35,624 bases of DNA, from contig JBBQXJ010000049.1 of the NCBI GenBank assembly GCA_038209745.1, positions 1-35,624 on the forward strand. The letters run 5' to 3'. Origin of the DNA: Verrucomicrobiota bacterium. Its GTDB lineage: Bacteria > Verrucomicrobiota > Verrucomicrobiia > Limisphaerales > CANJSG01. The position numbers and the translations under genes are program-made. Below the pieces are notes generated by a model. That model made no database searches and had not been told where the DNA came from. It was given only the letters and a program-made list of their open reading frames with translations. Positions 8,309 through 34,508 of this stretch are shown here, in pieces (the stretch's first letter is position 1; every line of letters begins with the position of its first letter).

Positions 8309-8327
8309 TCGCCGCCTCTTCCCCAAC

Positions 8328-10650: not shown

Positions 10651-12171
10651 ATGCCAAAGCGCACAGACATCCATTCCGTCCTCATCATCGGCGCCGGACC
10701 GATCATCATCGGCCAGGCCTGCGAGTTCGACTATTCCGGCACCCAGGCCTGCAAGGCCCTGCGGGAAGAGGGCTACCGTGTCGTCCTCATCAACTCCAAC
10801 CCGGCCACCATCATGACCGACCCGGAGTTCGCGGACCGCACCTACATCGAGCCTGTCACGCCGGAAGCCGTTGAGAAGATCATCGTGCGCGAGCAGGCGG
10901 AGATGAACTCCTTGCGGAGGGCCACCGGGAAGGAAATTGGCAAACTTGTCCTCCTCCCCACCCTCGGCGGACAGACCGCCCTCAACACCGCCATGAAACT
11001 CCACGGCACCGGCGTCCTGGAGCGCTTGGGCGTGGAGATGATCGGTGCCAAAGCGGACGCCATCGAGAAGGGCGAAGACCGCCAGATCTTCAAGGATCTC
11101 ATGATCCAGATCGGGCTGGATGTGCCCATTTCCGGAACGGCCCACACCGTCGAAGAATGCTGGGCCGTCGCCGAGAAGATCGGCCGCTTCCCCCTCATCA
11201 TCCGGCCCGCCTACACCCTCGGCGGCACCGGCGGCGGCATCGCCTACAACCGCGAAGAATTCGCCGAAATGGCCAAGCGCGGCATCGACCTTTCCCCCGT
11301 CTCCGAGATCCTCATCGAGGAATCCCTCCTCGGCTGGAAGGAATACGAGATGGAGGTCATGCGCGACCACGCCGACAACTGCGTCATCATCTGCTCCATC
11401 GAAAACTTCGATCCGATGGGCGTCCACACCGGCGACTCCATCACCGTCGCGCCCATCCAGACCCTCACGGACAAGGAATATCAGATCATGCGCGACGCCT
11501 CGTTCGCCGTGATCCGCGCCGTCGGGGTCGAGACCGGCGGGTCCAACATCCAGTTCTCCGTCAATCCCGACAACGGCCGGATGATCGTCATCGAGATGAA
11601 CCCCCGCGTCTCCCGCAGCTCCGCGCTCGCGTCCAAGGCCACCGGGTTCCCCATCGCCAAGATCGCCGCCAAGCTCGCCGTTGGTTACCTGCTCGACGAG
11701 CTCAGGAACGACATCACCCGCGAAACCCCGGCCAGCTTCGAGCCCAGCATCGACTACGTCGTCACCAAGATGCCCCGCTTCGCCTTCGAGAAGTTCCCCC
11801 AGGCCGACGCCACGCTGACCACCCAGATGAAGAGCGTCGGCGAAGCCATGGCCATCGGCCGCACCTTCAAGGAATCCTTCCAGAAATGTCTCCGCTCGCT
11901 GGAGATCGGCCGCAGCGGCCTCGGCGGCGACGGCAAGTCATGGCGGATCGGCGTCGATGTCTACGGCGACCGCGAAATCCTCCCGCGCGACGTCATCAGC
12001 CGGAAGCTCAGCATCCCCAACGCCGAACGCGTCTTCTTCATCCGCCACGCCCTCCGCGCCGGCTTCACCGTCGAGGAGATCTTCCAGCTCACCAAGATCG
12101 ACCGCTGGTTTCTGGTGCAGATCAAGGAACTCGTGGACTTCGAGGAAGAGCTGGCGGGGGCGAAGAATTAG
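10651..12171 (+). CDS. carB: Carbamoyl-phosphate synthase large subunit, N-terminal half only (506 aa)
   Basis: [66 protein letters not shown]. Stops after [20 protein letters not shown]. Confidence 0.93.
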
Positions 12172-12188
12172 ACTCTGCCCCGTTATTT

Positions 12189-13538
12189 ATGCCCCTGACC
12201 ACGAGCCAGCAGCTAATCGCCTTCAGCAACCACTTGGCAGCGCGTCGGGAATCCATCCTGTTTGCTTGGCGAAAAGCGGCCCGCGCGGATCCCGAACAAA
12301 CGACCGGCCGCGCGCTCACCCTCGGGCAATTCCTCGATCACATTCCACAGATCCTCGACGGCTTTGAACTCCAGCTGCGCTCCCGTCCGGGCGGGGCGGC
12401 TGCCCAAGCCGCCGATATCGGAAAAAAGGTGGAGGGGGTGAAGCACGGATTGCACCGCTGGCAGCAGGGGTATCGGTTGAAGGAACTCTTGAACGAGTGC
12501 GGCCTGCTTCAGCTCTGCTTGGTCGAGGAGCTGGGTCGCATCGCTGCGAAGCATCCCGAGCTGGAACACGAGACGCTGCTGGAGGCGAATCGCGAGTTGC
12601 TCAACCTGATCAACGATACCATCAGCGCAAGCGCCGCCCAATACGAGCGTATGCAGCGGGCGGAAGCCTCCGGGCGGTTGAACGACCTCATGGGCGTGCT
12701 CGCCCACGTCCATGAAATCGAGCAGCGGCGCGCCACCCTCATCCACCAGGCCGTGCATGATCTCACCAGCGACGCCCTCGGCGTCAGCATGGCGGCGACG
12801 TGGATCGGCAAGCCCGACACCGTAGAAACACAGCGGGTGGAAACGGCGGCGTTCCTGCAGCGGGCCGTGCAAGGGCTCACCGCGACGCTGGGTGAACTGA
12901 TGGTGCTGACGCGGCTGGAGGCCGGTCAGGAAAAACGGAAAATCTCCACGTTCGACGCCGCCGCCCTGATTACGGAACTGGGCCAGATCAATCAATCCTT
13001 GGCCCACGAACGCGGGCTGTTCCTCAAGGCCAACGGTCCGGCTTCGTTAACCATTGACGGCGACGCCGACAAAGTGGGGCGCCTGCTAAAAAACCTTTTG
13101 ATCAACGCGCTTAAATACACCGGACACGGCGGAGTCACCGTGAGTTGGGGCGCGGAGGAAAAGAACTGGTGGATGATGGTCAAGGACACCGGTCCCGGAT
13201 TGTTAGCCGGCTGCGGCGCCCCCATGCTGGAGGGCTTGCAGGAGGCCACCGCGAGCGCCAAGGAGTCGGACGTGAAGGCCGCCGCAGTCGAAGGTGTAGC
13301 CTCGCATGTGCTGACGCAGCCCTAGGACTCCTCCACTCCGGCTGGGCCTGCTCTGCAGCAGTCCGGTGAAGGGATTGGGCTTTCGATCGTGAAACGCCTA
13401 TGTGAATTGCTCGATGCGAGCTTGGAGATCGCCAGCTCGGCAGAAACGGGCACGACGTTCCGTGTCGTGTTTCCCAGCTGCTACCCAACTCCGGTTGACG
13501 AAAAACCGGTAGCAGGCGCGGCGGTCAGCTTGAGTTGA
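12189..13538 (+). pseudogene. Cytoplasmic sensor histidine kinase (RsbRD-N-like N-terminus) interrupted by an in-frame TAG at 13323-13325
   Basis: ATG 12189; H-box VHDL, N-box NLLINALKYT, G1 DTGPG. After the TAG the same frame continues GEGIGLSIVKRLCELLDASLEIASSAETGTTFRVVFP to TGA 13536-13538. Confidence 0.8.
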
Positions 13539-16166: not shown

Positions 16167-17660
16167 TCAGACCGTTTCGGTTATGCCGGCCATCAATCGC
16201 ATCAATGCGGGCTGGGAGAATTCTTCGCGGGAAAGTTCGCCGCTGATCCGTCCTTCGCGCAGCACGAGGATTCGGCGGCTCAGGTTCATCACTTCCGGAA
16301 GCTCGGAGGAGATGACCAGAAGGGCCAGCCCTTGGCAGGCCAGTTCGTCCAGCAATCCGTGGATCTCCGCCTTGGCCCCGACGTCGACGCCGCGAGTGGG
16401 CTCGTCCACGATCAGGATGTCGCACTCCCGGGCGAGCCACTTGGCCAGAGCGACCTTCTGCTGGTTGCCACCGCTCAGTCCGTTGATCACCGCCTCCATC
16501 GTAGGCGTCTTCACCCGGAGCCGGGCGCCGTAGCGCTCCGCAACGGCCCGCTCTTCTTTCCGTCGGACAAAGCCCCAGCGCGAGAGAGGCCCCAAGGTCG
16601 CGAGAGAGGTGTTCTCCCGGCAGTTCATCGAGAGAACCAGTCCTTGGCGCTTCCGATCCTCCGGCAAAAGGCCGATGCCCGCAGCCAGCGCGGCCTGCAC
16701 ATCGCCCAGCGGCAGCGGCCGACCTTTCGCCCAGATCCGGCCGGTGGCGGCCGGATCGAGTCCGAAGATCGCCTGGGCCACTTCGCTCCGGCCTGCGCCG
16801 ACCAGTCCGGCGAAACCCAGAACCTCGCCCGCCCTCAGGCTGAAGCCGATATCGACGAACTTCCCCGGTGAGCCGAGTCCCACCACGCGAAGGAGCTCCT
16901 CACCGAGCGGCTGCTCCAGATGTTTCGGCGTCACCACGGAGACCTGGCGGCCCACCATCTGATGGATCACTTCCTCGGGACTGGTCGACCCGGTCAAACC
17001 GGTCCAGACGTGGGCGCCGTCGCGAAGCACGGTGACCGTGTCGCACAGCCTGAAAATCTCCTCCATCCGATGCGAGACGTAGAGGACGGTGATGCCACGT
17101 TCGCGCAGCTGGGCGAGAAGGCCGAAGAGGTGTTCGCTCTCGGCGAAGGACAGCGAACTGGTCGGCTCGTCCATCACGATGATCCGTGCTTCCGTGCCGA
17201 GAGCGGCGGCGATCTGCACGATCTGTTCCTGGCCCGTGGTCAGTTCGCCGATGGGGCGGTTCACATCGATGTCCGATCCGATCTCCTCGAGCATCCGCCG
17301 CGCGCGCTTCCGCATTTCGGTCCGGTCCAGCCAGCCGCCGCGATTCGGCAGTTCACCGAGGCAAAGGTTTTCCGCGACGGTGAGATTCGGACAGAAGGCC
17401 AGCTCCTGGTGGACCATCGCGATGCCCAGACGCCGCGCCGCCAATGGATCCGCCGGAGCGATGGTTTCACCCTCCAGACGGATCTCGCCCCCGTCCGCCG
17501 TGTAGACTCCCGCAAGGATCTTGCCGAGCGTGCTCTTGCCCGCTCCGTTTTCGCCCATGATCGCATGGCAGCTGCCGCGCTTGATCGAGAAGCTCACTCC
17601 GTCCAATGCCTGGACTCCGGGAAAGCCTTTGCGGATGTCGTGGAATTCGAGGAAGGGCAT
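16167..17660 (-). CDS. Monosaccharide (CUT2) ABC transporter ATP-binding protein, RbsA/MglA type
   Basis: GENGAGKSTL, MDEPTSSL, YVSHRMEE; second ABC domain LSGGNQQK, DEPTRGVDVGAK, ISSELPE. Confidence 0.92.
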   Translation of the reverse strand: MPFLEFHDIRKGFPGVQALDGVSFSIKRGSCHAIMGENGAGKSTLGKILAGVYTADGGEIRLEGETIAPADPLAARRLGIAMVHQELAFCPNLTVAENLCLGELPNRGGWLDRTEMRKRARRMLEEIGSDIDVNRPIGELTTGQEQIVQIAAALGTEARIIVMDEPTSSLSFAESEHLFGLLAQLRERGITVLYVSHRMEEIFRLCDTVTVLRDGAHVWTGLTGSTSPEEVIHQMVGRQVSVVTPKHLEQPLGEELLRVVGLGSPGKFVDIGFSLRAGEVLGFAGLVGAGRSEVAQAIFGLDPAATGRIWAKGRPLPLGDVQAALAAGIGLLPEDRKRQGLVLSMNCRENTSLATLGPLSRWGFVRRKEERAVAERYGARLRVKTPTMEAVINGLSGGNQQKVALAKWLARECDILIVDEPTRGVDVGAKAEIHGLLDELACQGLALLVISSELPEVMNLSRRILVLREGRISGELSREEFSQPALMRLMAGITETV

Positions 17661-17777
17661 GCCGCAGATTGGCCGTGGCTGCGGCAAGGCTTCAACGGTC
17701 AAGTGAAGAGGCGGTCAAGCGGAGCGGTCGCTCCATGCTTGCCAGCGAAGCAGGTTTCTCCACACCGTCCGGGCTCG

Positions 17778-19130
17778 ATGAAGATCAAATTCAAGACGGT
17801 GGAAGGCGCGATCGTCGCGCCCCAGGGTTTCCTGGCCAGCGGCGTGTTCTGCGACATCAAGCGCCTCGGCACCGGCAAGGGCTCCGCCAAGGGACCCAAG
17901 CGCGACCTCGCCCTGATCGTCTCCGAAGTCCCCTGCTCCGTCGCCGGCATGTTCACGACGAACCAGATCTGTGCCGCGCCGGTAAAGGTCTGCGTCGCGC
18001 GCATCAAGAAGGGCAAGGCCCAGGCCGTGGTGGTGAATTCCGGCAACGCCAACGCCTGCACCGGCAAGCAGGGCATGAAGGACGCGGAGGCGATGACCGC
18101 CCTGACCGCGAAGCTTCTTAATCTCGACGATGAACAGGCCTTCGTCGGTTCCACCGGGCGCATCGGCGTGACCATGCCGATGGAGAACGTCCGCGACGGC
18201 ATTCGGATGGCCGCCGGCCTCCTGGGCAACGCGCCCGAACACGCCGCCGAAGCCGCCGAGGCCATCATGACCAGCGACAGCCGGGCCAAGCAGATTTCCA
18301 TCGAGTTCAAGCTCGGCGAAAAAACCGTCCGCCTCGGCGGAATGTGCAAGGGCGCGGGGATGATCCAGCCGGGCATGAGCGGCACCGGAACGCGCCCCGC
18401 CGCGTTGCCCAACGGTGTGCCGGCAGGCCTGCACGCCACGATGCTCTGCTTCATCACGACTGATGTCGCGATCAGCGCCAAGCTTCTCCAAGCCGCGTTG
18501 CGCGAAGCCGTCGCCCACAGCTTCAACCGCATCACCGTCGATGGAGACATGAGCACCAACGACACCGTTCTCGTCCTCGCCAACGGCCTCGCCGAGAATC
18601 CGGCCTCCGGTATCCGGAATCAGTCCTCCAAAGATTTCCAGGTCTTCCAGGCCGCGCTCATCCACGTCTGCCTGGAACTGGCCAAGATGATCGTCCGCGA
18701 CGGCGAAGGCGTGCATCGCGTCGTCACTGTCCGCGTGGATGGCGCCAAGACGATCGCCGATGCCGATGCTGTCGCCCGGGCCGTGGCGAACAGCGCGCTG
18801 GTCAAGACGAGTTGGCATGGTGGCGACCCGAACTGGGGCCGCATCATCGGCGCCCTCGGCTACAGCACGGCCAAGATCGTCGAGGACAAGGTGGACATTG
18901 GATACAGCGCTCCCGGCGGCAAGAAGATCCTCTGGAGCCTCAAACACGGCCAGCCCACCAAAGCATCCTACAAGGAGCTGTGCGCCGCCGTCGCACCCAA
19001 CGAGTTCGATCTCCACATCCGCCTGAACCTGGGCCCGGCCTCCGCCATCATGTATGCGGCCGATCTGACCGAAGCCTACGTGGACTACAACAAGGGGGAC
19101 GTGACCGATCCTGCGACGCTGGGGGGCTGA
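17778..19130 (+). CDS. argJ: Glutamate N-acetyltransferase / ornithine acetyltransferase
   Basis: NSGNANACTG, STGRIG, KGAGMI..ATML, NRITVDGDMSTND, RDGEG, DPNWGRI; ATG 17778. Confidence 0.93.
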   Translation: MKIKFKTVEGAIVAPQGFLASGVFCDIKRLGTGKGSAKGPKRDLALIVSEVPCSVAGMFTTNQICAAPVKVCVARIKKGKAQAVVVNSGNANACTGKQGMKDAEAMTALTAKLLNLDDEQAFVGSTGRIGVTMPMENVRDGIRMAAGLLGNAPEHAAEAAEAIMTSDSRAKQISIEFKLGEKTVRLGGMCKGAGMIQPGMSGTGTRPAALPNGVPAGLHATMLCFITTDVAISAKLLQAALREAVAHSFNRITVDGDMSTNDTVLVLANGLAENPASGIRNQSSKDFQVFQAALIHVCLELAKMIVRDGEGVHRVVTVRVDGAKTIADADAVARAVANSALVKTSWHGGDPNWGRIIGALGYSTAKIVEDKVDIGYSAPGGKKILWSLKHGQPTKASYKELCAAVAPNEFDLHIRLNLGPASAIMYAADLTEAYVDYNKGDVTDPATLGG

Positions 19131-19149: not shown

Positions 19150-20748
19150 CTACTTCTCCCCGTCCACCCACCAGGTGGTCAGGTCGCCCTTCCCTTTGAT
19201 GGAGACCACACCCCGGGGGGTCAGCCGGAATCCATCGCCGATCAGCCGGGCCGTCGCCTCCGTGATATGGACCCGCCCGGGTTCGCCATGTGATTCCATC
19301 CGGCTGGCGGTGTTCACCGTGTCGCCCCAAAGGTCATAGATGAATTTTCTCCGGCCGATGATGCCCGCGATCACGGGTCCGGAGTTCAATCCCACGCGCA
19401 TTTCCAGGGTTGTGCCCTGCTCGACGTTGAACCGCTTCATCACGGCGTGCAGTTCGATCGCCATCCGGGTCGCCGCTTGGGCGTGATCCGACCGTGGCAG
19501 GGGCAGGCCGGCGACCGCCATGTAGGCGTCGCCGATCGTCTTGATCTTTTCGATGCCATGCCGATCGGCGAGTTCGTCGAAAGCGGTGAAGATCTCGTCG
19601 AGCAGCCTGACCACGATCTTCGGCGGAACGCGCACCGACAGGCTGGTGAAGCCGGCAAGATCCGCGAAAAGCACCGTCGCCTCCTGGAAACTGTCGACGA
19701 TGGTGGTTTCGCCCTGCCTCAGGCGGTCGGCGATCGGCTTGGGCAGGACATTCAAGAGCAACCGCTCCGATTGGGCCTGCTCTTCCTCGATCCTTTTGAT
19801 GTAGACCTGCTCCAAGTCCCGGAGCCTTTTCTTCTCCAGAGCGGCGCCGATCCGCGCCCGCAGCAACACGGGGTTGAAGGGTTTGGCTAGGTAGTCCTCG
19901 GCCCCTAGTTCGATGCACTGGACGATGCTCTCCATCTGGTCGAGCGCCGAGATCATGATCACGGGCAGGTTCTTGAGAGTGACATCGCCCTTGATGGCGG
20001 TGAGCAGTTCATGGCCGTCAAGCCCCGGCATCACCATGTCCAGGAGCGCGAGGTCGAAGCCGCCCTGCCGCAGACATTTGAGCGCCTCCGTCCCGTCCAC
20101 ACAGGCGACGACCGAGAATCCAAGCTTTTCGAGGCGGCGCTGGAGCAGATCGCGATTGCCGGCGTCGTCATCCGCGAGAAGCAGGCGTCCCTGTTCGGTC
20201 GAGGAAATCTCTGGGCCTTTCGGGGTTTGAACCAGGCTGCTCTGGATGTTCGACCAAGTGCCCGCGCGGGAACCGACGGAACCGGCGGCCGCCGCTTTTC
20301 GGAACATCTGGATCGAGCATTCGTTCAGCAGCTGCGTCTCCATCAGGCCGAGCCAGGAACGCCCGGCCTCGATGACCTTGCCCAGATCCGCCTCGAATTC
20401 CTGGTGTCCGAGATCTTCGCACATCTCGATCAACAGCTCGCCGAAGCCGATGATGTGGTTCGCTGGGGTCCGGAGTTCGTGGCTCAACCGCTGCCGGTCG
20501 TGGCCGTGGGTGTAGAACGTGTCCTCGCCAAGATACAGGTTGATCAAGCCGACCAACTGCAGACCGCCGCTGTGGATCTTCTCCAGATCGTGCAGGAACT
20601 CCGGAGGCATGTGGCCCTCGGCCTCTTCCAGAAGAATCTCGCTGTAGCCGATGATGTGGTTGATCGGCGTCCGCATGTCGTGACGGATGCGCGCCAATTG
20701 AAACTTCTCGTTGCCATCGAGCGATTTCTTGTTGGAGGGGGTTGCCAC
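19150..20748 (-). CDS. Class III adenylate cyclase with two N-terminal HisKA-like segments and a receiver domain
   Basis: HDMRTPINHIIGYSE and HELRTPANHIIGFGE; REC (LLADDD, LLDMVMP, DYLAKP); cyclase (VLFADLAGFT, EKIKTIGDAYM, YDLWGDTVNTASRMES; K and D specificity residues indicate ATP). GTG start at 20748 inferred. Confidence 0.87.
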   Translation of the reverse strand: MATPSNKKSLDGNEKFQLARIRHDMRTPINHIIGYSEILLEEAEGHMPPEFLHDLEKIHSGGLQLVGLINLYLGEDTFYTHGHDRQRLSHELRTPANHIIGFGELLIEMCEDLGHQEFEADLGKVIEAGRSWLGLMETQLLNECSIQMFRKAAAAGSVGSRAGTWSNIQSSLVQTPKGPEISSTEQGRLLLADDDAGNRDLLQRRLEKLGFSVVACVDGTEALKCLRQGGFDLALLDMVMPGLDGHELLTAIKGDVTLKNLPVIMISALDQMESIVQCIELGAEDYLAKPFNPVLLRARIGAALEKKRLRDLEQVYIKRIEEEQAQSERLLLNVLPKPIADRLRQGETTIVDSFQEATVLFADLAGFTSLSVRVPPKIVVRLLDEIFTAFDELADRHGIEKIKTIGDAYMAVAGLPLPRSDHAQAATRMAIELHAVMKRFNVEQGTTLEMRVGLNSGPVIAGIIGRRKFIYDLWGDTVNTASRMESHGEPGRVHITEATARLIGDGFRLTPRGVVSIKGKGDLTTWWVDGEK

Positions 20749-20774
20749 GCGGAAGCTGCGACGGTCCGGGTCGC

Positions 20775-21143
20775 TCAGGGAGTGCGGAGATGTTTCTCTA
20801 TCTTCTCGAGCAACCGCGGCAGTTCGATCGGCTTGGTGTCGAAATCGTCGCAACCGGCTTCGCGCGCCCTCTGTTCGTCGCTGGCCATGGCGTGGGCCGT
20901 CAGGGCGATGATCGGAATCCCTTTCGTCGCGTCGTTCGCCTTCAAGCGCCGGGTCGCCTCCCATCCGTCGATGATCGGCAGGCTCATGTCCATGAGGATG
21001 ATCTCCGGCATTTCGGCCTGGGCCATGTCGATGGCCTGCTGGCCATCCACCGCGATCGAAACAACATGTCCCCGCCGCAACAAGCGCCGGGAGAGCATGT
21101 CTCGGTTCATTTCGTTGTCTTCAACCAGAAGTATTCGGGCCAT
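20775..21143 (-). CDS. Single-domain response regulator (CheY/DivK-like)
   Basis: ILLVEDN, ILMDMSLP, IIALTAHA, FDTKP; 122 aa from ATG 21143. Confidence 0.92.
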   Translation of the reverse strand: MARILLVEDNEMNRDMLSRRLLRRGHVVSIAVDGQQAIDMAQAEMPEIILMDMSLPIIDGWEATRRLKANDATKGIPIIALTAHAMASDEQRAREAGCDDFDTKPIELPRLLEKIEKHLRTP

Positions 21144-21203
21144 GGAGTGGTTAGGTTGATCGGGGATCCGTTCGGCAGTGCCCGCCGAAGCCAAGCTGCT
21201 GGC

Positions 21204-24200
21204 TCAGATCTCCCACTTTAGATTTCGTTTAATGACGGAGTCGATTTCCGCGGCCAGACCAAGGATCGACAGGGTGCCTTTTTCGATGACTTTGACCACG
21301 TGTCCATTGAGCCGCTCCCGGTCCTCGACGGTAAGATCCTTGGCGGTGCTGACGATCACCGGGATGGTCCGCCAATCCGGATTCATGCGAAGCTCCTCCA
21401 TGAACTCGAACCCGTCCATTTCGGGCATCATCAGATCCAAAAGGATGAGTGCCGGCCGCTCGAGCTTCACCTGGTCCAATCCCACCAGACCATTGGCCGC
21501 CTCCCGGACGGACCACCCTTCCTTGCTCATCTGCCGCGCGAGCATCTCCCGGGTATCGGTGTTGTCTTCGACGATGAGCACTGGCCCGTTGTTCTGGGTA
21601 GATTGGCGGAATTTTCTGAGCAGCTTGCTCAGACGGGACCACTCGACCGGCTTGGTCACGTAGTCCATGGCCCCCAGAGAGAAGGCCAGGTTCTTGTCAT
21701 CCACGACGCTGACCATGACAACCGGTATCTCGGCGAGTTGGGGGTCCGACTTGAGGGCGCTCAGCACGGCCCATCCATCCATGCCCGGCATCATGACATC
21801 CAGCGTGATGGCAACAGGACGGAGCTCCCGAGCCCGCTGCAGCCCTTCCTGGCCGCTGGACGCCGTTTCGACGTGATAACCCTCCTTGGTCAGATGACGA
21901 GCCAGCATCTCTAGGATATGGGGATCATCGTCGATCGCGAGCACCGTGATGCCGGGCTTCGCGCCCCCATTGTCCGGAGCAGGAGCCCTGGCTGCCGGCG
22001 CGTCCTCCGGGCACTGGACCGGCAGCGTGGCGTTGAAGGTGGTTCCCTTGCCGTGCTCGCTTTCCACCGAAAGAGTTCCGCCCATCAGTTCGCAGAACCT
22101 GCGGCTGATCGCGAGGCCCAGTCCCGTCCCGCCATACTTCTTCGAAGTGGACGCATCCGCCTGGGCGAACGCCTTGAAAAGATTGCCCAGTTGGTCCGGC
22201 GTCATCCCGATGCCGGTATCGGCCACGGTGAAGGAAACGGACGGAACCCCGCCTTCGGGCGCACCCTCTGATGCAGCGGTCGACGGTGGCTCCAGATGCC
22301 GGGCAACCCTCACCGTAATGGTGCCGTTCTCGGTGAACTTGTTGGCGTTCGACAACAGGTTGAAAAGAACCTGTCTGACCTTGGTCATGTCGGCCCGAAT
22401 CGTGCCGGCGTCGGCCGGACATTCGACGGTCAGACGATTCCCGTTCTTTCCGATCAGAGGTTCGAACGTGGCCCGGACCTCCTCGACCATGGGAGCGATT
22501 TCGAACTCCTCGAGATAGAGCGTCATCTTGCCCGCCTCGATCTTCGAGAGGTCCAGGATGTCGTTGATCAAACCCAACAGGTGCCGCCCCGATGACCGGA
22601 TCTTCTGGAGATCCACGCTGAACCCGTCCAGCTCCATGTCGACGGCCTCCTCCTGCAGCATCTCCGAGTATCCGATGATGGCATTGAGCGGCGTCCTCAG
22701 CTCGTGGCTCATGTTCGCGAGGAACTGGCTCTTGGCCGAGCTGGCCGACTCCGCTTCCTCCTTGGCCTTGCGCAGATCCTCTTCCGCCCGTTTGCGTCCG
22801 GTGATGTCCTGTCCGACACAGACAACCCCGATGACCGCCCGCTGTTTGTCCTTCAGGAGCGCACCCGAAAATGAAATCGGAATCATGGTTCCATCGGCGG
22901 CGCGATACGTCACCTCCATGTTCACGACCGTCAGACGCCGCACCAGTTCGTCGTCGAAGATCGTCGTCGCTCCTGCTTCCAAGACGAGGATTTCGCGGAT
23001 GTTCCGTTGCAGGAGATCAGCCTCCTCGAAACGCAGAAGCCTGCAGAGGGCACGATTGACGGTCCGGACAGCGCCCGTGGTATCCACGACCATGAGGCTG
23101 TCGTTCATGGTGCGGATCACCGAGTTCACATAGTCCTTGTCGACCAGCTGTGCCCGTTGATCCTTTAGATCCAGGATCATCTGGTTGAAGGTCTTGGCCA
23201 GGGCTCCGATTTCATCGCTCGAGCGACAAGAGGCCTTGGCATCGAAATCACCGACCGCGACCCGTCCGGCCACCCGGGAAAAATCTCCGATCACGCGAGT
23301 CACCCGACGCGTGATGATCACCACGACCCCCACCACCACGGCGAACATGACCAGACCCAGCGATATCACCGATCGTTCGAGCTGCCTGATGGGCGACAAG
23401 GCGATCCGGGTATCCTGCATCACCAGTGTCGCCCATCCAAAACCAGGAAAATTGGTCCACCCTTTGCACTGGCTGAAGCCGATCAAGGACCGGCCGCCCT
23501 GGTCATTGTCTTCGATCACGGAACCGTCCTGACCGGATACTGCGGATCGCGCCGCTTGTAGATGCTGGTCGAAGAGATTGGCCCGGGCTTCGGCCGCCGG
23601 GCCCGCGTTCGAATCGAACAAAACGCGGCCTTTTTTCTGGATGAGGACGATCCGGTATTCCTTCTCCGTTTGGATGATCTCGCCCAGTTGGTCCAGCCGC
23701 CAATCGGCTTCCAGCACGAAAATGATCTGCGACTGGGACCGATCGGTGACCGGGAACATGAAGCGAACGACCCACTGCTTGCTGACGGGATCAAGTTGGG
23801 CGTCCCGGATCGTATTTGTTCCCGCGAGCGCCCTCCGCCGGTCACTGTCCATCGGCAGAGTGCTGCCCATCAATCCGGGTTCGCTGGCCACGACGACCTT
23901 GCCACTGGAATCCATCAACTGGACACTCGCAAACTCGGGGTGTTGCTTGACCACCCCGCTGAGGAACTGAAAGGCCGCGAGAGGATTCTCGGGAATCAAG
24001 ACATCCTCCAAAACGTCCATTCTCGACCATGCTTTAACGTCGCGTTCCGCACTGAAAAGGACGCGATCCACTTCTCGGGCGGTGTCCTTGGCGCTCTGCT
24101 CGAAACTGTTGCCCAGACCTCTGCCAACCGCTTCGGTGCCGATGAGATTGGAATAGATCCCAATGCCCACCAGCGGCAAAAGTGATACCGCCAACGAGAA

Positions 24201-24227
24201 GGCGAGGATTTTGGCCCGAACCTGCAT
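21204..24227 (-). CDS. Hybrid sensor histidine kinase (TM-Cache-like-TM-HAMP-PAS-HisKA-HATPase-REC-REC)
   Basis: Two TM helices; DEIGALAKTFNQM; FLANMSHELRTPLNAIIG; NLLSNANKFT; DTGIGM; GGTGLGL; two receivers (TLDVMMP, LLDLMMP). Confidence 0.93.
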   Translation of the reverse strand: MQVRAKILAFSLAVSLLPLVGIGIYSNLIGTEAVGRGLGNSFEQSAKDTAREVDRVLFSAERDVKAWSRMDVLEDVLIPENPLAAFQFLSGVVKQHPEFASVQLMDSSGKVVVASEPGLMGSTLPMDSDRRRALAGTNTIRDAQLDPVSKQWVVRFMFPVTDRSQSQIIFVLEADWRLDQLGEIIQTEKEYRIVLIQKKGRVLFDSNAGPAAEARANLFDQHLQAARSAVSGQDGSVIEDNDQGGRSLIGFSQCKGWTNFPGFGWATLVMQDTRIALSPIRQLERSVISLGLVMFAVVVGVVVIITRRVTRVIGDFSRVAGRVAVGDFDAKASCRSSDEIGALAKTFNQMILDLKDQRAQLVDKDYVNSVIRTMNDSLMVVDTTGAVRTVNRALCRLLRFEEADLLQRNIREILVLEAGATTIFDDELVRRLTVVNMEVTYRAADGTMIPISFSGALLKDKQRAVIGVVCVGQDITGRKRAEEDLRKAKEEAESASSAKSQFLANMSHELRTPLNAIIGYSEMLQEEAVDMELDGFSVDLQKIRSSGRHLLGLINDILDLSKIEAGKMTLYLEEFEIAPMVEEVRATFEPLIGKNGNRLTVECPADAGTIRADMTKVRQVLFNLLSNANKFTENGTITVRVARHLEPPSTAASEGAPEGGVPSVSFTVADTGIGMTPDQLGNLFKAFAQADASTSKKYGGTGLGLAISRRFCELMGGTLSVESEHGKGTTFNATLPVQCPEDAPAARAPAPDNGGAKPGITVLAIDDDPHILEMLARHLTKEGYHVETASSGQEGLQRARELRPVAITLDVMMPGMDGWAVLSALKSDPQLAEIPVVMVSVVDDKNLAFSLGAMDYVTKPVEWSRLSKLLRKFRQSTQNNGPVLIVEDNTDTREMLARQMSKEGWSVREAANGLVGLDQVKLERPALILLDLMMPEMDGFEFMEELRMNPDWRTIPVIVSTAKDLTVEDRERLNGHVVKVIEKGTLSILGLAAEIDSVIKRNLKWEI

Positions 24228-24238
24228 GCAGATGGAAC

Positions 24239-24736
24239 TCAGTTTTCTTTGCCCGCACGCAACACGTAGCCCGGTTCACCCGGGAGGCGGCCATCGATCC
24301 GCAGCACTTTGACAGACGGGTCCTTCATCGACGCGTCTATGAAGCCTATGCCGCTTTTGAGCCGGCTGATCTCCTTGATGACCTCGCCGCTCGAAGCCCG
24401 CACGACGGGAGAGGAGACGATCTCCGCCTTGAAAACTCGGAGCATCCAGTCCCTGTTCAAGGCTTCCTCGGTTCGATGATACACCTTCTCCAGGATCAGT
24501 TCCTTTTCCGGAAGGCCCGCTTTCAAAGTCACCAGCGCCACCCGGTTCCGGCTGCCGGTCTTCCAAAACTGCTGCTGGAGCTCGAAGAGGCTTCGAAGTT
24601 CCTTGAGGGACAATTCGTCCACCGGATTGTCGCGGTTCACGACGATCGCCACGTCCGCAACCTCCGCCGCATGGCCCACCTGAACCATCGCGGTAAACAC
24701 GATGCCGAGCAGCATTTTGCGGACGGAGAGGATCAT
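24239..24736 (-). CDS. Small PstS/PBP-like periplasmic binding protein
   Basis: Signal peptide; VAIVVNRDNPVDELSLKELRSLF...W and GIGFID...VKVLRIDG, typical of short PBP-domain proteins. Start 24736 lies just after the porin stop. Confidence 0.75.
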   Translation of the reverse strand: MILSVRKMLLGIVFTAMVQVGHAAEVADVAIVVNRDNPVDELSLKELRSLFELQQQFWKTGSRNRVALVTLKAGLPEKELILEKVYHRTEEALNRDWMLRVFKAEIVSSPVVRASSGEVIKEISRLKSGIGFIDASMKDPSVKVLRIDGRLPGEPGYVLRAGKEN

Positions 24737-24737
24737 G

Positions 24738-26060
24738 TCAGTAGGTGAATGTTGCCTGTGTGTAGAAGGCATTAGGATTGTCCAGGCCCTTTTGATCGAT
24801 GTAATGATATTCGAACTTCAAGGCGGCCCAGGTGATGAAATCCCAGCGGACCCCCAACGTGTGCCGGCGGACATCGACCAGCAAAGGTCCGTAGTATGGA
24901 TCGCCCTCTCCCAGGTCGAGATAGTCGAAGCGGTAGTAGGGCTTGAAGGCGTGATACTGGTATCCCACCTGCGCATAGGCCCCCCAGGTCTCATAGCGTT
25001 GGTTGCTCACGTGGTCGTCGTGCTCGATCCGCATTCCTTCAAAAAGGAACTCGATGTTGTCCCGCAGATAGGTGAGGTGGGCGCCCGTGATCAGTTCGTT
25101 GATGTTGCCGTTCCTGCTGGCGACCGACGGATCGGGGGGGATGACATCGGCGTAGCCGTTAACCCCGAAGCCGAGACCGGGAACTCCGGCCGGCTGCAGA
25201 TCGAGAACGCCGTAGACCGCCTTGTTGTCGTTGAGATCCTGGATGTCGACTGTGGTCGTGTAGGCTCGGCCGCGGCCGTTGGCGATTCCGATATTATAGT
25301 GCAGATCGACCAGCTTCGTCGGTTGATACCCGTAGATCTCGACACCCACTGAATGGATCGGGAGCACCGACCCTCCATCATGGAAGCGCATCAACTCGGG
25401 CCTCAGAATCGTGGTCTGGAACCAGGTGCCATGATGGAACGTCTCGTTCCAATAGCCAAAGGGAGTGTGCGTGCGGCCGAGCCGAAAATTGAAAAGGTCG
25501 TTGGCGTGGTATTGCAGCTGAAGCCGCTCGATCGTGGTGGATGCCGATTCGTCGTCCTTATACTGGAAAACGATCTCGGACATGATGCTGACCCGGTCGG
25601 AAAGCCTCGAATTGGCCATCAGTCCCAGCTGACCGAGACCGAACGTCGAGGGCAGTTCATCGGCGCCGCGCAATTTACCACCCACGCGATAGTCCACGTC
25701 GCCAAACCAGAGCAGACTTAGACTCGGCATTTTCGAGCCCACATCGTGGCCCATGTCCACATCGGGCTCCGCCAGGACCACGGGCGTCGTCGGCGCGGCG
25801 ATCCTCGCAGGAGTCTTCTGTTCAAGCGCCTGCAACCGCTGGACCAGTCCATTGATGGCGTCCGATTGGGAATCCAGCTTTTGTTTCAGGTTGCTGTTCT
25901 CTTCCTGCAGCTTCCGGACTTGCTCCCGAAACGTACCGCCCTCCTCCGCCCCGAAAGCCGGCCGCATGGGCGACAGCGCCACGAGCAGGCCGCAGGCGAT
26001 GAAAGTGGAACCCCGCTGCGCCACGGGGCGCAGACTGCTTTTGGTTCGGGATCGAATCAT
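24738..26060 (-). CDS. Outer-membrane porin-like beta-barrel with an N-terminal coiled coil
   Basis: Signal peptide; coiled coil VRKLQEENSNLKQKL; FRLGRTHTPFGYWN; alternating beta strands; C-terminal aromatic ...QATFTY. Confidence 0.78.
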   Translation of the reverse strand: MIRSRTKSSLRPVAQRGSTFIACGLLVALSPMRPAFGAEEGGTFREQVRKLQEENSNLKQKLDSQSDAINGLVQRLQALEQKTPARIAAPTTPVVLAEPDVDMGHDVGSKMPSLSLLWFGDVDYRVGGKLRGADELPSTFGLGQLGLMANSRLSDRVSIMSEIVFQYKDDESASTTIERLQLQYHANDLFNFRLGRTHTPFGYWNETFHHGTWFQTTILRPELMRFHDGGSVLPIHSVGVEIYGYQPTKLVDLHYNIGIANGRGRAYTTTVDIQDLNDNKAVYGVLDLQPAGVPGLGFGVNGYADVIPPDPSVASRNGNINELITGAHLTYLRDNIEFLFEGMRIEHDDHVSNQRYETWGAYAQVGYQYHAFKPYYRFDYLDLGEGDPYYGPLLVDVRRHTLGVRWDFITWAALKFEYHYIDQKGLDNPNAFYTQATFTY

Positions 26061-26129
26061 GAAAGGTTTTTGAGTGTATGAAAGCAGCCGAGACTATTTC
26101 TCCCCAAGGCGAAGCTCTTTTCAATCTTC

Positions 26130-26156
26130 TAATCGGCAAACTTGGGCGGAAGGTGA
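26130..26156 (-). promoter_or_regulatory. Possible sigma-28-like promoter of the porin-cyclase operon
   Basis: Minus strand TCAC-N15-GCCGATTA versus the FliA consensus TAAA-N15-GCCGATAA, 70 nt upstream of the porin ATG. Confidence 0.35.
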
Positions 26157-26226
26157 TTCGACAGGATGGCGGCTGCTTCTCATCGAGCCTCCAGATCACA
26201 TCGAACGGGAAGACGTCTCCGTGCGT

Positions 26227-27756
26227 TCACCGGAACGGGAAGACCCAGGAAACAACCATCGTAACTCCGAATCCGATCAGCGAGACGACGGTCAGCATCG
26301 GAGTCCAGGTCTTCAACATCTCCTTCTCCGTGAGCCCGCCCAGCCGACTCACGACCCAAAAGCCGGAATCGTTCATCCAAGAGCAGCTGAAGGCCCCGAA
26401 GCCGATGGTCAGGAACAGATACAAGGGATGCACCGACATGGTGCTCGCTCCTGCCGCATCGACGGTCAGCGGGTAGAGCATGGCCGAGGTGGTCAGCATC
26501 GCGACCGTCGCGGAGCCCTGGGCCACTCGGAGAACGACGGAGACAATGTAGCCGAGCACGAGGAGGTTGATCTTGTAGTCCAAAGCAACCTCCTTGATCG
26601 CTTCGGCCATGCCGGCGTTTCGCAGCATCAGGCCGAAGGCGCCGCCTGCGGCGGTGATCAGGATGATGGTGCCGGCCGTTTCCAGCGGCGGACCGAAATG
26701 CTTCTCCAACTGACCGAATGTCACCTTGCGCTGACGCATCATGACGATGACGGCGAGCACCGTTCCCAAGAACAAAGCGATGTTCTTGTCGCCGATGAAC
26801 TCGGACCACTTGATCGCGGTGAAGAATCCCGGTTGACCGCCGAGCATCGACACAAAACCCGTGGCCCACCCCCGACCTTCCGCCGCTGCTCCCTGCGCCA
26901 CGACAAAGAACGAGGACAACCCGATCAGGAGAATCGGAATGATAACGGGCGAAATGGACGCGATGAAACCCGGGAGTTGCGACTCGGGCTTGTCCACGAT
27001 CGCCTGCAGCTCCTGCATCGTTGAACCCGGAGTTTCGCGGAGAGGCACCTCGATGCGCTTGTTCAGCCACTTGGAAAACAGCCAACCACCCAACACCGCC
27101 GGCAGACCGACGACGATACCGGCAAGAATCGACAGGCCAACGTCCACCTTCAGGTTGTCCACCATGGCCATCGGTCCCGGATGAGGCAAGGTCATCGAAT
27201 GCGTCACCACGCCGCCGGCGCAGATGACGAGCACGAACAACAGATAGTCCTTGCCCGTGCGGACACGAAGCGCCTTGGCCAGCGGCACCATCAGCATGAA
27301 CATGGTGTCGAAAAAGATCGGAACAGAGAGGACGTAGGTGCTCAGGAGGAGGGCGACACCCGCGTTTCGCTCACCAAACGCGGCGAGGAAGCGCCTCACG
27401 ACTTTGTCCGCCGCTCCGGATTCCATGAGACACATGCCTATGATGCTCGCCAGAACAATGGAAATGGCGATGCCTCCAGCGGTCCGCCCGAACTCGCTGG
27501 CGGTCATGTCCACGGCGCGGCCCATGTGGAACTTCGGTGCGGTTTTGCCCGGCGCCGGCAAGGTCTCGGCCAGCGGACTGGACTCGCGGGATTCGGGCAG
27601 ATTCTCAGCCATGAGCCCGGCGATCAGAGCTCCTCCTATGAGGGCGATGAACGCGGGCAGCCTCAGCTTCGAGATCGCCAGGATGACGAAACCGACGCTG
27701 ACGAGGAGGATCATGAACGGCCAATAGGAAAACGAGGTGGCGGCAAGAAGTTCCAT
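26227..27756 (-). CDS. GntP family (gluconate:H+ symporter-like) permease
   Basis: LRLPAFIALI, ESGAADKV, SVPIFFD, PHPGP, ITAAGGAFG, RVAQGSATVA, WMNDSGFW. Confidence 0.9.
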   Translation of the reverse strand: MELLAATSFSYWPFMILLVSVGFVILAISKLRLPAFIALIGGALIAGLMAENLPESRESSPLAETLPAPGKTAPKFHMGRAVDMTASEFGRTAGGIAISIVLASIIGMCLMESGAADKVVRRFLAAFGERNAGVALLLSTYVLSVPIFFDTMFMLMVPLAKALRVRTGKDYLLFVLVICAGGVVTHSMTLPHPGPMAMVDNLKVDVGLSILAGIVVGLPAVLGGWLFSKWLNKRIEVPLRETPGSTMQELQAIVDKPESQLPGFIASISPVIIPILLIGLSSFFVVAQGAAAEGRGWATGFVSMLGGQPGFFTAIKWSEFIGDKNIALFLGTVLAVIVMMRQRKVTFGQLEKHFGPPLETAGTIILITAAGGAFGLMLRNAGMAEAIKEVALDYKINLLVLGYIVSVVLRVAQGSATVAMLTTSAMLYPLTVDAAGASTMSVHPLYLFLTIGFGAFSCSWMNDSGFWVVSRLGGLTEKEMLKTWTPMLTVVSLIGFGVTMVVSWVFPFR

Positions 27757-28241
27757 GGGTGGTTGGCGGGAAACTGCGCCAGAACACCCCCCACGCGGCA
27801 AGGCTTATTGCTGGCAACGAAGGATCTGCTTCCAAGGAACCGATCAAACAGTTCGTTCACGAAATCCGGAAACGGGCGACCCAAGGCATCGGTCTGTCGC
27901 GCCGGAACCTCTGCAGAGCGTGTCTTCAGTCGCTCTTTCCCCTCATCGCAGAGTCTGCATTCGGACCGGCACGGCTCCGGGAGGCACCCATGCTCCGATG
28001 AAAAACGGTAGGGACCGAACTACGGGCGCCATGAAAATGCGCCCCGTGGGCGGTTGCTCCGACCGATCCAGCCTGAATCCTTCACGCGACCCCCAGTCTC
28101 ATCGGTTTCAAGCCGACAAACAGAACCAGAGCAACTCCGATCAACGCACGGGGCACTCGATTCCAGAACAGGGGCACTGGGCACACCCTATAAATCCGCC
28201 CAGCGGCGCCCTCTCCGCCTCCGCCCGGGAGCGGGCCGGGA

Positions 28242-29804
28242 CTACTTCTTCAGCAGCGCGTATTCCATCGAGTCGACGAGGGACTGGAGGCTGGCGGTGA
28301 TGATGTTCTCGCTGACCCCGACGGTGCCCCACTCGGTTTTGCCATCGGTGCTGGTGATCAGCACGCGGGTCTTGGCGGCGGTTCCTGCGATGCCGTCGAG
28401 GATGCGGACCTTGTAGTCCGTCAGCGTGATCTTCTTCAGGGCCGGGAACGACTTGCCCAGCGCGGAGCGCAGTGCGCCGTCGAGCGCGTTCACAGGGCCA
28501 TCGCCTTCCGCCACGGTGTGGTGCGTCTTGTCGCCGACACGGACCTTCACGGTCGCTTCGCAGACGGATCGGTCGCCGTTGCCGCGCATGGAGACGTGGT
28601 AGGAATCGACCGTGAAGAGCAGTTCCGGATTGTGATCGAGGACGCCGCGGATGAGCAGCGCCAGAGACGCTTCGGCCGCCTCATATTCGAAGCCGCTCGA
28701 TTCAAGTTCCTTCACTTTGGTCGTGATCGCCCGGGTCTCGGGCGCATCGGCGGCCAGCTTGAAGCCCAGCTCGGCCGCTTTGATGAGGATGTTCGTCCGA
28801 CCCGACATGTCGCTGACGAGGACGCGACGGTGGTTGCCGACGGACTCGGGCTTGATGTGTTCGTAGCTGCGGGCCACCCGCTCGATGGCGTGGACGTGGA
28901 TGCCGCCCTTGTGCGCAAAGGCGGTCTGCCCCACCCACGGCTGGCGCGTGTCGTGACGGACATTCGCGACCTCATCCACGAACTCGGAAAGCTCCTTCAG
29001 CTTGGGCAGCGACTTTTCGGGCACGCCGACGCGGTTCATCTTGAAGGCAATGGTCGGGATCACGCTGATCAGGTTGCAGTTCCCGGTGCGTTCGCCGTAG
29101 CCGTTGATCGTGCCCTGGATGTGGTCGGCGCCGGCTTCCAGGGCCGCGATGCCATTGGCCAATCCGAAGCCACAATCGTTGTGGGTGTGGATGCCGATGC
29201 GGGCGTGCAGCTTGTCCTTGGCGAAGGCGACGATCCGGGCGACCTCGCTGGGCAATGCGCCGCCATTGGTCTCACAAAGACAGATGACGTCCGCTCCGGC
29301 CTTTTCGGCGGCCCGCCAAGTCGCCAGCGCATATTCGGGCTCGTCCTTGAAGCCGTCGAAGCTGTGCTCGGCGTCATAGACGACGATTTTCCCCTGGTCT
29401 TTCAGGAAGCGGATCGTGTCGGCGATCATGGCGAGGTTCTCGGCCGGCTTGACCCGCAGCACCTCGGTGACGTGGAGAAGCCACGTCTTGCCGACGATGG
29501 TGACGACGGGGCTCTTCGAATCGAGGAGCATCCGGATCTGGGGATCGTCCTCCACCGCGACGCCCTTCTTCCGGGTGAAGCCGAAGCTGGCGATCTTCGC
29601 GTGCTTCCATTTCCGCTTCGCGGCCTGCTGGAAGAACTCCAGATCCTTGGGATTCGATCCCGGCCAGCCGCCCTCGATGTAGTGCACGCCGAACTGGTCG
29701 AGGCGCTCGGCGATGCGGAGCTTGTCGGCCAGCGAGAAGTTGATGCCTTCGGCCTGAGCGCCGTCACGGAGGGTCGTGTCGTAGATCTCGACTTTTTGTT
29801 TCAT
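28242..29804 (-). CDS. cimA: Citramalate synthase (LeuA-related)
   Basis: DTTLRDGAQAEG, YIEGGWPGSNPKD, YDAEHSFDG, HTHND, GERTGN, AFAHKGGIH, and a LeuA-type regulatory domain (GDGPVNALD). Confidence 0.88.
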   Translation of the reverse strand: MKQKVEIYDTTLRDGAQAEGINFSLADKLRIAERLDQFGVHYIEGGWPGSNPKDLEFFQQAAKRKWKHAKIASFGFTRKKGVAVEDDPQIRMLLDSKSPVVTIVGKTWLLHVTEVLRVKPAENLAMIADTIRFLKDQGKIVVYDAEHSFDGFKDEPEYALATWRAAEKAGADVICLCETNGGALPSEVARIVAFAKDKLHARIGIHTHNDCGFGLANGIAALEAGADHIQGTINGYGERTGNCNLISVIPTIAFKMNRVGVPEKSLPKLKELSEFVDEVANVRHDTRQPWVGQTAFAHKGGIHVHAIERVARSYEHIKPESVGNHRRVLVSDMSGRTNILIKAAELGFKLAADAPETRAITTKVKELESSGFEYEAAEASLALLIRGVLDHNPELLFTVDSYHVSMRGNGDRSVCEATVKVRVGDKTHHTVAEGDGPVNALDGALRSALGKSFPALKKITLTDYKVRILDGIAGTAAKTRVLITSTDGKTEWGTVGVSENIITASLQSLVDSMEYALLKK

Positions 29805-33749: not shown

Positions 33750-34508
33750 TCAGTTGGGGAACGTGTAAGCGTATTCGATCCGCCCCCGATCCGTCACTGC
33801 CCACAAGTTAACGGTCGGACCGACACACATTCCTTTCCGAAGCTGGCGAACCCCGCCGTCGAAAAACGCGTAGTTGGAGGAAACCTTCCCGTGCCGAACG
33901 TGGTCCAATTCCTCGTAGTCGTTGCCGTGGCCCTCGAAGAGATCCATGAAGTATTGCTTCGAAGCGTGCTTTTTTTCGCCGAACAGGATCGTGTCCGAAG
34001 GCTTGGACACGGCGGTCTCGGGGAGGCTGAGCTGTTGCTGGGTCGCAGCGTCGACCTCCGCGATGGTGGTGCCAAAGTAATCGTTGAACCCGTTGATCAT
34101 GTAGCTGCGCGGCGCCTTGTCCGCAGCATCGGCATTCGGGAGGGCGGAAGCTTCGGTGGCCGGCGGAGTGAAGTTATCGACCGGGCAGATGAGGACCCGG
34201 AGATCCTGATAGTCGTTGCGCAACCGGCCCGGCCACCGATTGAAGGGCGGAGGACAACGAGGGGGATTCTTTCCATTGTTGTCGCTCACATACATGGCCG
34301 CTGCGAGGCCGATTTGGCGGAGATTGTTCACGCAGGCGATCCGTTGGCCCTGCCCCTTGGCATTGGCCAGACTGGGCAGGAGCATCGCGGCCAAGATTCC
34401 GATGATCGCGATGACGACCAGCAGCTCGATGAGTGTGAAGCCGCGCCGGTCAGCAGGATGCAGCCGGTTGAATGCGCGGTCAGTGTTTAGGGTCGGTTCA
34501 GACGACAT
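33750..34508 (-). CDS. Prepilin-type N-terminal cleavage/methylation protein with an H-X9-DG-like C-terminal motif
   Basis: [24 protein letters not shown]...[27 protein letters not shown]. Confidence 0.9.

Follow-up and report, generated by a model that had tools for sequence, protein, structure and literature searches.

A porin and a one-lobe PstS-like protein encoded beside membrane transducers, here with a predicted cAMP-producing phosphorelay

Genes at the locus

Five co-oriented genes on the minus strand of a contig from a Verrucomicrobiota bacterium (JBBQXJ010000049.1 of assembly GCA_038209745.1; the 35,624-nucleotide stretch analysed is called the window below) encode an apparent signalling pathway whose gene order leads from the outer membrane to the cytoplasm. 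Gene 1 (24738-26060, minus strand) specifies a predicted outer-membrane porin of 440 amino acids, recognised by a fold match together with a sub-threshold Pfam score. Gene 2 (24239-24736, minus strand) encodes a predicted secreted, single-lobe PstS-like protein of 165 amino acids, here called a half-PBP (PBP, periplasmic binding protein), which was identified from a weak TIGR02136 match and from AlphaFold2 and Foldseek. Three signalling genes assigned with Pfam follow: a hybrid sensor histidine kinase of 1007 amino acids with the architecture TM-dCache-TM-HAMP-PAS-HisKA-HATPase_c-REC-REC (gene 3, 21204-24227, minus strand; TM, transmembrane segment; REC, receiver), a single-domain response regulator of 122 amino acids that consists of a receiver only (gene 4, 20775-21143, minus strand; Response_reg, 87.5 bits), and a 532-amino-acid protein with a GTG start in which a dimerization and histidine phosphotransfer (DHp) part and a receiver precede a class III adenylate cyclase (gene 5, 19150-20748, minus strand). 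The main subject here is the pair formed by the first two genes, which in several phyla adjoins membrane transducers of all the main classes.

With the start codons chosen here, the open reading frame (ORF) coordinates leave gaps of 1, 11, 60 and 26 nucleotides between the genes, and the half-PBP start codon lies 1 nucleotide past the porin stop. The starts are choices, in that longer ones are available at ATG 24772 for gene 2, TTG 21194 for gene 4 and ATG 20964 for gene 5, each of which would overlap the preceding gene. According to Pfam, none of the five genes encodes an ABC permease, ATPase or DNA-binding domain, and no Hpt (histidine phosphotransfer) domain was found in the window. A preliminary description of this DNA, made from the letters alone, had listed the same five genes with the same gaps, order and domain content, had remarked on the absence of an ABC permease or ATPase and of a DNA-binding regulator, and had counted four receiver domains; ORF coordinates and Pfam agree with it on all these points, with two receivers in gene 3 and one each in genes 4 and 5. 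Its count of three His sites holds for two, the HisKA domains that Pfam places in genes 3 and 5, but the third is a motif with no Pfam match.

A one-lobe relative of PstS

The half-PBP begins with a helix that resembles a signal peptide. It has no Pfam match, including to PBP_like_2 (PF12849), and its similarity to the PstS model TIGR02136 (E 2e-4; 20.6 bits against a cut-off of 206.6) spans profile positions 120-236 of 295. An alignment made with phmmer covers residues 80-190 of the 252 in PstS chain 4q8r. When an AlphaFold2 model (predicted local distance difference test score, pLDDT, 88.8) was searched with Foldseek, the top matches were PstS chains; the alignments run over about 125 columns, whereas the targets have 240-260 residues, and the TM scores are 0.6 by query and 0.4 by target. 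By these sequence and structure matches, the protein is one lobe of the PstS fold. At 165 amino acids and with half of PstS aligned, it lacks the two lobes and hinge of the type II PBP fold, and as a single PstS lobe it therefore cannot undergo Venus-flytrap closure on a ligand.

In Escherichia coli PstS, a Ser-Gly-Thr loop in lobe II takes part in anion binding. The phmmer alignment sets 'DGSGTR' of 4q8r opposite 'AGLPEK' of the window's half-PBP, and thus replaces Ser-Gly-Thr with Leu-Pro-Glu. Within the family the consensus at this position is G-x-P-E-R, and Glu77 is nearly invariant. Since other residues stand in place of the anion loop, among them a Glu that hardly varies in the family, the half-PBP is unlikely to bind phosphate in the manner of PstS. 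Phosphate sensing, which an ancestry shared with PstS and OprP would suggest, was set aside on these grounds. The label PBP in the preliminary description needs correction as to the number of lobes and the anion loop.

Half-PBPs are numerous. The 72 homologues collected range from 96 to 219 amino acids, and the number of matches to a profile searched against 1.84 billion representative proteins was 11084 at an E threshold of 1e-3, 4647 at 1e-10 and 216 at 1e-30. Of the 150 top-ranking matches, nearly all measure 129-240 amino acids, which corresponds to a family of about 130-240 amino acids. These sequence searches point to a large stand-alone family, and not to an accident of truncation. Its members go by the source names 'hypothetical protein' or 'phosphate transport substrate-binding protein', and some carry a precomputed PF12849 match. 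No PstCAB-type permease or ATPase is encoded by the five genes, and none was seen beside the pair in the annotated loci. One protein of 689 amino acids (P0210) has four stretches that match the half-PBP profile and two PBP_like_2 stretches, and repeats the one-lobe unit in tandem.

A porin with a conserved loop

In the predicted porin, a signal peptide and a periplasmic coiled-coil helix (about residues 43-80) precede a 16-strand beta-barrel. The AlphaFold2 model, built with 21 homologues (pLDDT 75.1), consists of a single long helix (43-80) and then 16 strands, and Foldseek matches it to OmpT, OmpM1 (8byt), OmpC, OmpF and OprP (2o4v) with E values of 1e-12 to 1e-10. The assignment rests on fold because the Pfam score for Porin_O_P (PF07396), 15.6 bits, does not reach the cut-off of 20.9.

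The most conserved stretch of the porin family, with the consensus GRYHTAIGYYNTAYHH..W.QT in alignment A2, is the loop between strands 5 and 6, which corresponds to residues 199-235 of the model and contains short helices. A conserved His-His pair lies within this loop, which is the family's own. In 16-strand porins of the OmpF type, the constriction loop sits between strands 5 and 6. The window's porin has the corresponding barrel and loop; by analogy, the loop is predicted to fold inward, and its conservation suggests a specific or selective pore. The N-terminal arm of the porin differs among loci: it is a coiled coil in the window, an AMIN domain in two Acidobacteriota loci (L009 and L025), and a half-PBP in L023 and P0206.

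The pair in other genomes

A peptide pattern drawn from the half-PBP alone, scanned against one genome of each species, yielded 24 loci. Most are titled as Acidobacteriota, and the remaining titles give Gemmatimonadaceae, Omnitrophota, Nitrospirota, Planctomycetota and Proteobacteria. When these loci were searched by tblastn with the window's porin, a homologue was found in 21 of the 24, and it lies directly upstream on the same strand in 20. The match in L013 is split into three pieces, and that in L023 lies downstream of the half-PBP within the same ORF (6704-8542, 612 amino acids). The L023 ORF is one of three fusions of half-PBP and porin, which occur in both orders: P0191 has porin then half-PBP (E 3e-26), and P0206 has half-PBP then porin (E 9e-59). 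Both termini of even-stranded barrels face the periplasm, and therefore the fusions place the half-PBP at the periplasmic face of the porin.

Membrane transducers adjoin the half-PBP in most places. We assembled 44 loci from the 24 pattern loci, 16 usable loci of the window's phylum, three further pairs and the window itself. In 38 of the 44, a membrane transducer is adjacent to the half-PBP, usually together with a porin or a gene of porin size. The transducer is a chemoreceptor (methyl-accepting chemotaxis protein) in 15 loci, a kinase with an OmpR-type regulator in 13, a hybrid kinase in five, a GGDEF-EAL protein in three and a membrane cyclase (TM-HAMP-cyclase) in two. The periplasmic sensors of these partners are either four-helix bundles (4HB) or dCache domains.

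Among the pattern loci, Pfam searches of neighbouring genes and ORF lists show that 20 of 24 have a transducer next to the half-PBP; in 17 of these it lies immediately downstream and in the same orientation. The other three arrangements are one small gene between half-PBP and transducer (L009), a transducer directly upstream (L023) and a convergent one (L024). Within the window's phylum, 47 of 401 genomes have a match to the half-PBP profile; most of the weaker matches are full-size PstS-like frames of 261-366 amino acids, and most half-size frames are among the strongest. The phylum sample consists of the 17 best non-self matches of the 47, of which one locus was too short to use. Fourteen of the remaining 16 have an adjacent transducer (two hybrid kinases and 12 chemoreceptors).

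The three further pairs come from the genomes of L006, L008 and L017, each of which has a porin and half-PBP elsewhere than at its pattern locus, and all three have an adjacent transducer. In two Nitrospirota genomes (L082 4484-6088 and L083 4994-6571), the pair is followed by a TM-HAMP-class III cyclase protein, an arrangement that is a one-protein route to a cyclic nucleotide. The same two genomes have a second half-PBP beside a dCache GGDEF-EAL protein, apart from the porin pair. After the third further pair come a 4HB kinase and an OmpR-type regulator; this intact series of porin, half-PBP, kinase and regulator occupies L084 1867-5990 in the genome of L017. The pattern locus of that genome (L017 6222-7826) contains a decayed module, in which an intact half-PBP stands between an upstream porin fragment with an in-frame TAA and a kinase fragment of 138 amino acids. 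An Acidobacteriaceae metagenome-assembled genome (MAG) has tandem porin and half-PBP pairs (L021 2879-4957 and 5461-7414) before one 4HB kinase and regulator.

In a tree of 26 half-PBPs, the five that are beside dCache transducers form one clade with L003, and this clade includes three or four phyla and three output types. The grouping of half-PBPs by sensor type that it implies is suggestive only.

The spread over phyla and output classes is a stronger argument for a functional link than the locus counts are. Because chemoreceptors and cyclases do not regulate transcription, the pair would serve in sensing, and would not merely be a regulated target of its neighbours. Two expectations of the preliminary description were followed up by this neighbourhood analysis. 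The outputs coupled to the porin and binding protein had been called swappable, and kinases, GGDEF-EAL proteins, chemoreceptors and membrane cyclases are indeed exchanged among the 38 loci. Co-conservation of porin, binding protein and kinase had been named as the check, and the neighbourhood recurs in other phyla far beyond chance.

Hybrid kinase and relay

Pfam finds dCache_1, HAMP, PAS, HisKA and HATPase_c domains in gene 3, and Response_reg in two stretches. The two halves of this protein resemble different relatives. Residues 1-481 (dCache-TM-HAMP-PAS) share 35% identity with the input half of GGDEF-EAL proteins in Nitrospirota loci L006 and L008, and residues 502-999 (HisKA to the second receiver) are 52% identical to hybrid kinases of the Acidobacteriota loci L009 and L025. 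The window's kinase is thus a mosaic of an input half and a transmitter half. The lone receiver of gene 4 is 71-73% identical to its counterparts, which occupy the same place in L009 and L025. The DHp-REC part of gene 5 is 31-32% identical to HisKA-REC-Pkinase proteins of the same two loci (residues 18-350 are 31% identical to that of L025), so that the same scaffold bears a Ser/Thr kinase there. The whole five-gene layout is therefore found in L009 and L025 as well, where the sensor is a 4HB and the output a Ser/Thr kinase. All of these relatives of the window's relay (L006, L008, L009 and L025) sit right after a half-PBP. Between half-PBP and hybrid kinase, the otherwise conserved layout of L009, which is in a Chloracidobacterium MAG, contains a gene for a '23S rRNA intervening sequence protein' (7396-7830).

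A word-index search for homologues of the gene 3 sensor domain gave only four proteins, and the resulting alignment (A3) is shallow, with six rows. When the sensor domain alone was searched against the 401 genomes of the window's phylum, one strong match beyond its own genome was detected (G247, 1.2e-28), in which a kinase is followed by an adjoining porin and half-PBP; the same search gave a weak match in G142 (7.7e-7).

The order HisKA-HATPase-REC-REC, then REC, then HisKA-REC-output, as assigned by Pfam, is that of a multi-step His-Asp-His-Asp relay. The second His module, in gene 5, is a DHp without an ATPase domain, for which we infer a role in phosphotransfer.

Cyclase and cAMP output

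In gene 5, Pfam detects HisKA at residues 17-70, Response_reg at 190-300 and Guanylate_cyc at 353-529 (204.7 bits). A second motif resembling an H-box, the third of the His sites mentioned above, is visible in the translation and is not conserved in the L025 homologue. The DHp modules are unaccompanied by an ATPase domain; therefore the gene 5 protein cannot phosphorylate itself, and its phosphoryl group most likely comes from the receivers of the hybrid kinase.

Among solved structures, the best relatives of the cyclase domain are adenylate cyclases. Its FADLAGFT, KTIGDAYM and YDLWGDTVNTASRM segments align to AC5 (C1/C2) and AC9, and the aligned positions include the two metal-binding Asp residues, the Lys/Asp specificity pair and the transition-state Asn/Arg. 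In class III adenylate cyclases, these residues respectively bind metal, specify the substrate and act in the transition state. Because the adenine-specifying, metal and transition-state residues all align with those of adenylate cyclases, cAMP is the likely product, in support of the cAMP synthesis that had been predicted from the translation. The genome has four cyclase-domain matches, as well as ten cNMP_binding matches in eight open frames, whose proteins are possible readers of a cAMP signal.

Relation to known systems

Periplasmic proteins that bind a ligand and inform a membrane transducer are well known, and LuxP-LuxQ, TorT-TorS and NspS-MbaA are such pairs. PstS, of the PBP_like_2 family, serves the chemoreceptor CtpL, according to tables in a review (PMC8050422). 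In all four systems, as at the loci described here, a periplasmic protein of a PBP fold is encoded beside or near a membrane transducer, and the partner classes include chemoreceptors, kinases and GGDEF-EAL proteins. A binding-protein gene conserved beside a transducer gene, the mark of a sensor that depends on a substrate-binding protein (SBP), is found in 38 of our 44 loci. Unlike the present module, the known cases use complete, two-lobe proteins that clamp their ligand, most of which also serve an ABC transporter. Here, there is one lobe with the anion loop replaced, no transporter, and a dedicated porin that is co-encoded and sometimes fused. The module is binding-protein-assisted sensing, which is a known kind of system, but its binding protein is not a PstS by model threshold, lobe number, anion loop or transporter neighbours. 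Whereas signalling by binding proteins has been known only with complete, two-lobe proteins borrowed from transporters, the half-PBPs are a large one-lobe family without the PstS anion loop.

Other systems share parts of the layout. The locus of the GltB-GtrS/GltR glucose system of Pseudomonas aeruginosa also encodes the porin OprB. In that system a periplasmic binding protein activates the sensor kinase (PMC7927077). However, GltB is a complete SBP that belongs to an ABC importer, and a DNA-binding regulator is the output, whereas the window's genes have no importer, a half-PBP and a predicted cAMP output.

In the Rcs phosphorelay, RcsF and an outer-membrane barrel inform the inner-membrane protein IgaA. 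The route proposed here would likewise cross the envelope, from a barrel and a small periplasm-exposed protein to a multi-step phosphorelay. RcsF differs in being a lipoprotein of another fold, and its barrels are general porins or BamA rather than dedicated partners.

The window's porin resembles OprP/OprO and OmpM1 in its 16-strand fold, weak Porin_O_P match and coiled-coil segment before the barrel. It is unlike OprP/OprO in falling below the Pfam cut-off and in having its own conserved His-His loop. OmpM1 has a periplasmic stalk with an SLH domain, in place of which the porins studied here have a coiled coil, AMIN domain or half-PBP. Finally, cyanobacterial CyaC fuses a receiver to a class III cyclase and sets cAMP by phosphotransfer, but it has a full kinase core of its own. 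Gene 5 has only DHp modules lacking an ATPase and a receiver, and so would rely on the separate hybrid kinase.

In a full-text literature search that covered journals open without subscription, supplements aside, we found no description of a module of porin, half-PBP and transducer. The main text of the review cited above (PMC8050422) contains no occurrence of 'outer membrane', 'truncated' or 'single domain'. The preliminary description had known of no characterised example of the complete layout, a statement that agrees with the literature found but needs qualification, as L009 and L025 have the layout with another sensor and output.

A possible sensory front-end

We favour, with reservations, a model in which the porin and half-PBP together are the sensory front-end of the adjacent transducer, which in the window would drive cAMP production through a multi-step relay. 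Some cue would enter through the porin or act on it, while the half-PBP would remain at the periplasmic side of the porin. Either the cue or the half-PBP itself would then act on the hybrid kinase by altering the state of its dCache domain. A phosphoryl group might pass from the kinase His to its own receiver or receivers, then to the ATPase-less DHp of gene 5 and on to the receiver of gene 5, which would switch the dimeric class III cyclase and hence the level of cAMP. The lone receiver could be an intermediate or a phosphate sink. That the half-PBP touches the sensor is inferred, as are the sequence of phosphotransfer steps, the direction in which the relay regulates and the cue itself, which is probably not phosphate bound in the manner of PstS.

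If the pair is such a front-end, many 'orphan' receptors have an unrecognised partner in the outer membrane, and a ligand screen that used a sensor domain by itself would fail to detect the true input. To the known forms the window adds a dCache, hybrid-kinase and cAMP form that works through a relay of four receivers. It also adds evidence of cassette shuffling, with input and transmitter halves that match different phyla and with a swap of cyclase and Ser/Thr-kinase outputs. The Nitrospirota loci add the direct membrane-cyclase form. A bolder proposal, that porin, half-PBP and periplasmic sensor form one envelope-spanning complex, an antenna for receptors of any output class with the half-PBP as universal coupler, seems to us possible but doubtful. 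If it is correct, bacteria have a general layer of signal input that had escaped recognition, and the window has its cAMP form. A complex prediction for half-PBP residues 24-165 with dCache residues 31-285 scored 0.00 against a mark of 0.32, returned no answer, and counts neither for nor against contact.

Several observations weigh against a front-end role, or at least limit the support for it. The dCache_1 match in gene 3 (42.6 bits) is under the curated threshold of 45; homologues of gene 3 score 57.5 and 74.4 bits. No porin was detected by tblastn near the half-PBPs of L006 and L008 that are beside a transducer. Six of the 44 loci do not have an intact transducer: L003, L004, L005 and L070 have none (in L070 a TPR protein is in its place), L017 has the kinase fragment, and L060 reaches the contig end. 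Where the window's phylum has a chemoreceptor (12 loci), the place of the porin is taken by a protein of about 400-590 amino acids whose kinship to the porin is not established. One such protein, compared with the porin alignment by hhalign, gave a probability of 2% and an E value of 0.023, alongside weak Pfam porin matches; as the hhalign result is not significant, these proteins were not counted as members of the porin family. The dCache clade of half-PBPs has weak support (86/47) with long-branch warnings, and it is confounded with taxonomy, since nearly all 4HB cases are in Acidobacteriota. Many Acidobacteriota loci are probably orthologues, and the count of 38 thus overstates the number of independent events. 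The fusions speak for contact of the half-PBP with the porin only, and not with the sensor, and the association of one small protein family with two unrelated sensor folds (4HB and dCache) is less simple to explain by direct docking. Co-transcription of the five genes is an assumption here: among 24 sequencing runs, no RNA run is listed as carrying the stretch, which occurs in 20 runs from metagenomes of sediment or soil whose type is given, as a guess, as DNA.

Some of the same observations could be accommodated if the pair were a device for uptake or retention of a periplasmic solute, and the transducer sensed this solute by itself, with no contact between them. Domains of the dCache and 4HB kinds bind ligands unaided, and a solute shared in this way would explain why two unrelated sensor folds accompany the pair, why pairs without a transducer exist (L003, L004, L005 and L070), and why some half-PBPs (L006 and L008) have no adjacent porin. 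However, a one-lobe fragment without the PstS anion loop would be a poor trap for a solute, and no inner-membrane importer is conserved with the pair in the annotated loci. The half-PBP paralogue that Nitrospirota keep beside a GGDEF-EAL sensor, away from the porin pair, is also not expected of an uptake device, nor is the grouping of half-PBPs by sensor type, weak as it is. We therefore regard a shared substrate as unlikely, although it deserves to be taken seriously. We assign a lower probability to the idea that the stalked porin and half-PBP report on the condition of the outer membrane or peptidoglycan, much as RcsF does. The AMIN domain is a peptidoglycan-associated targeting domain, and the variation of the porin arm among coiled coil, AMIN and half-PBP would suit a sensor of envelope state, as would the absence of the canonical PstS ligand site. 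On the other hand, chemoreceptors, which normally track gradients of chemicals outside the cell, account for 15 of the 38 adjacent transducers, and the most conserved part of the porin, the strand 5-6 loop inside the barrel, points to a selective pore.

Adjacency could also be accidental, with porin and half-PBP unrelated to the three signalling genes that follow. In G247, the closest relative that has the module, the kinase gene precedes the pair and a cyclase is missing, as such an accident would predict. Yet gaps of 1 and 11 nucleotides, a neighbourhood found in 38 of 44 loci from Acidobacteriota, Gemmatimonadota, Nitrospirota, Planctomycetota, Proteobacteria and the window's phylum, and a five-gene layout common to L009 and L025 are difficult to attribute to chance. 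The comparative sequence data make this explanation very improbable, and we consider it close to refuted.

Surrounding genes and other features

A spacer of 166 nucleotides (26061-26226, minus strand), read from the sequence, separates the porin gene from a GntP permease gene, and is the likely site of the operon promoter. A scan with the sigma-70 consensus found no site in this spacer. The consensus scan gave one promoter-like site where 1.4 were expected and 12 terminator-like sites where 6.2 were expected, all of them inside coding sequence and none convincing. Rfam detected only a tRNA in the window and no match in the porin leader.

The GntP-family permease (26227-27801, minus strand; 290 bits) is on the same strand as the five genes, 166 nucleotides upstream of the porin, and was not seen in the related loci annotated. 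Beyond it lies a gene resembling LeuA or homocitrate synthase (28242-29804, minus strand). At the other end, an ArgJ gene (17775-19130, plus strand) converges on the cyclase gene, with 19 nucleotides between the stop codons. The ArgJ ORF as listed (16920-19130) reaches far upstream of the ArgJ domain, and its true start is probably internal. An ORF of 722 amino acids at 11157-13325 (plus strand) has as its sole match a weak, partial HATPase_c of 25.8 bits, just below the cut-off. Towards the end of the window, a prepilin-type N-terminal methylation motif is present in the protein encoded at 33750-34556 (minus strand), and a tRNA-Asn(GTT) gene occupies 35133-35207 (plus strand).

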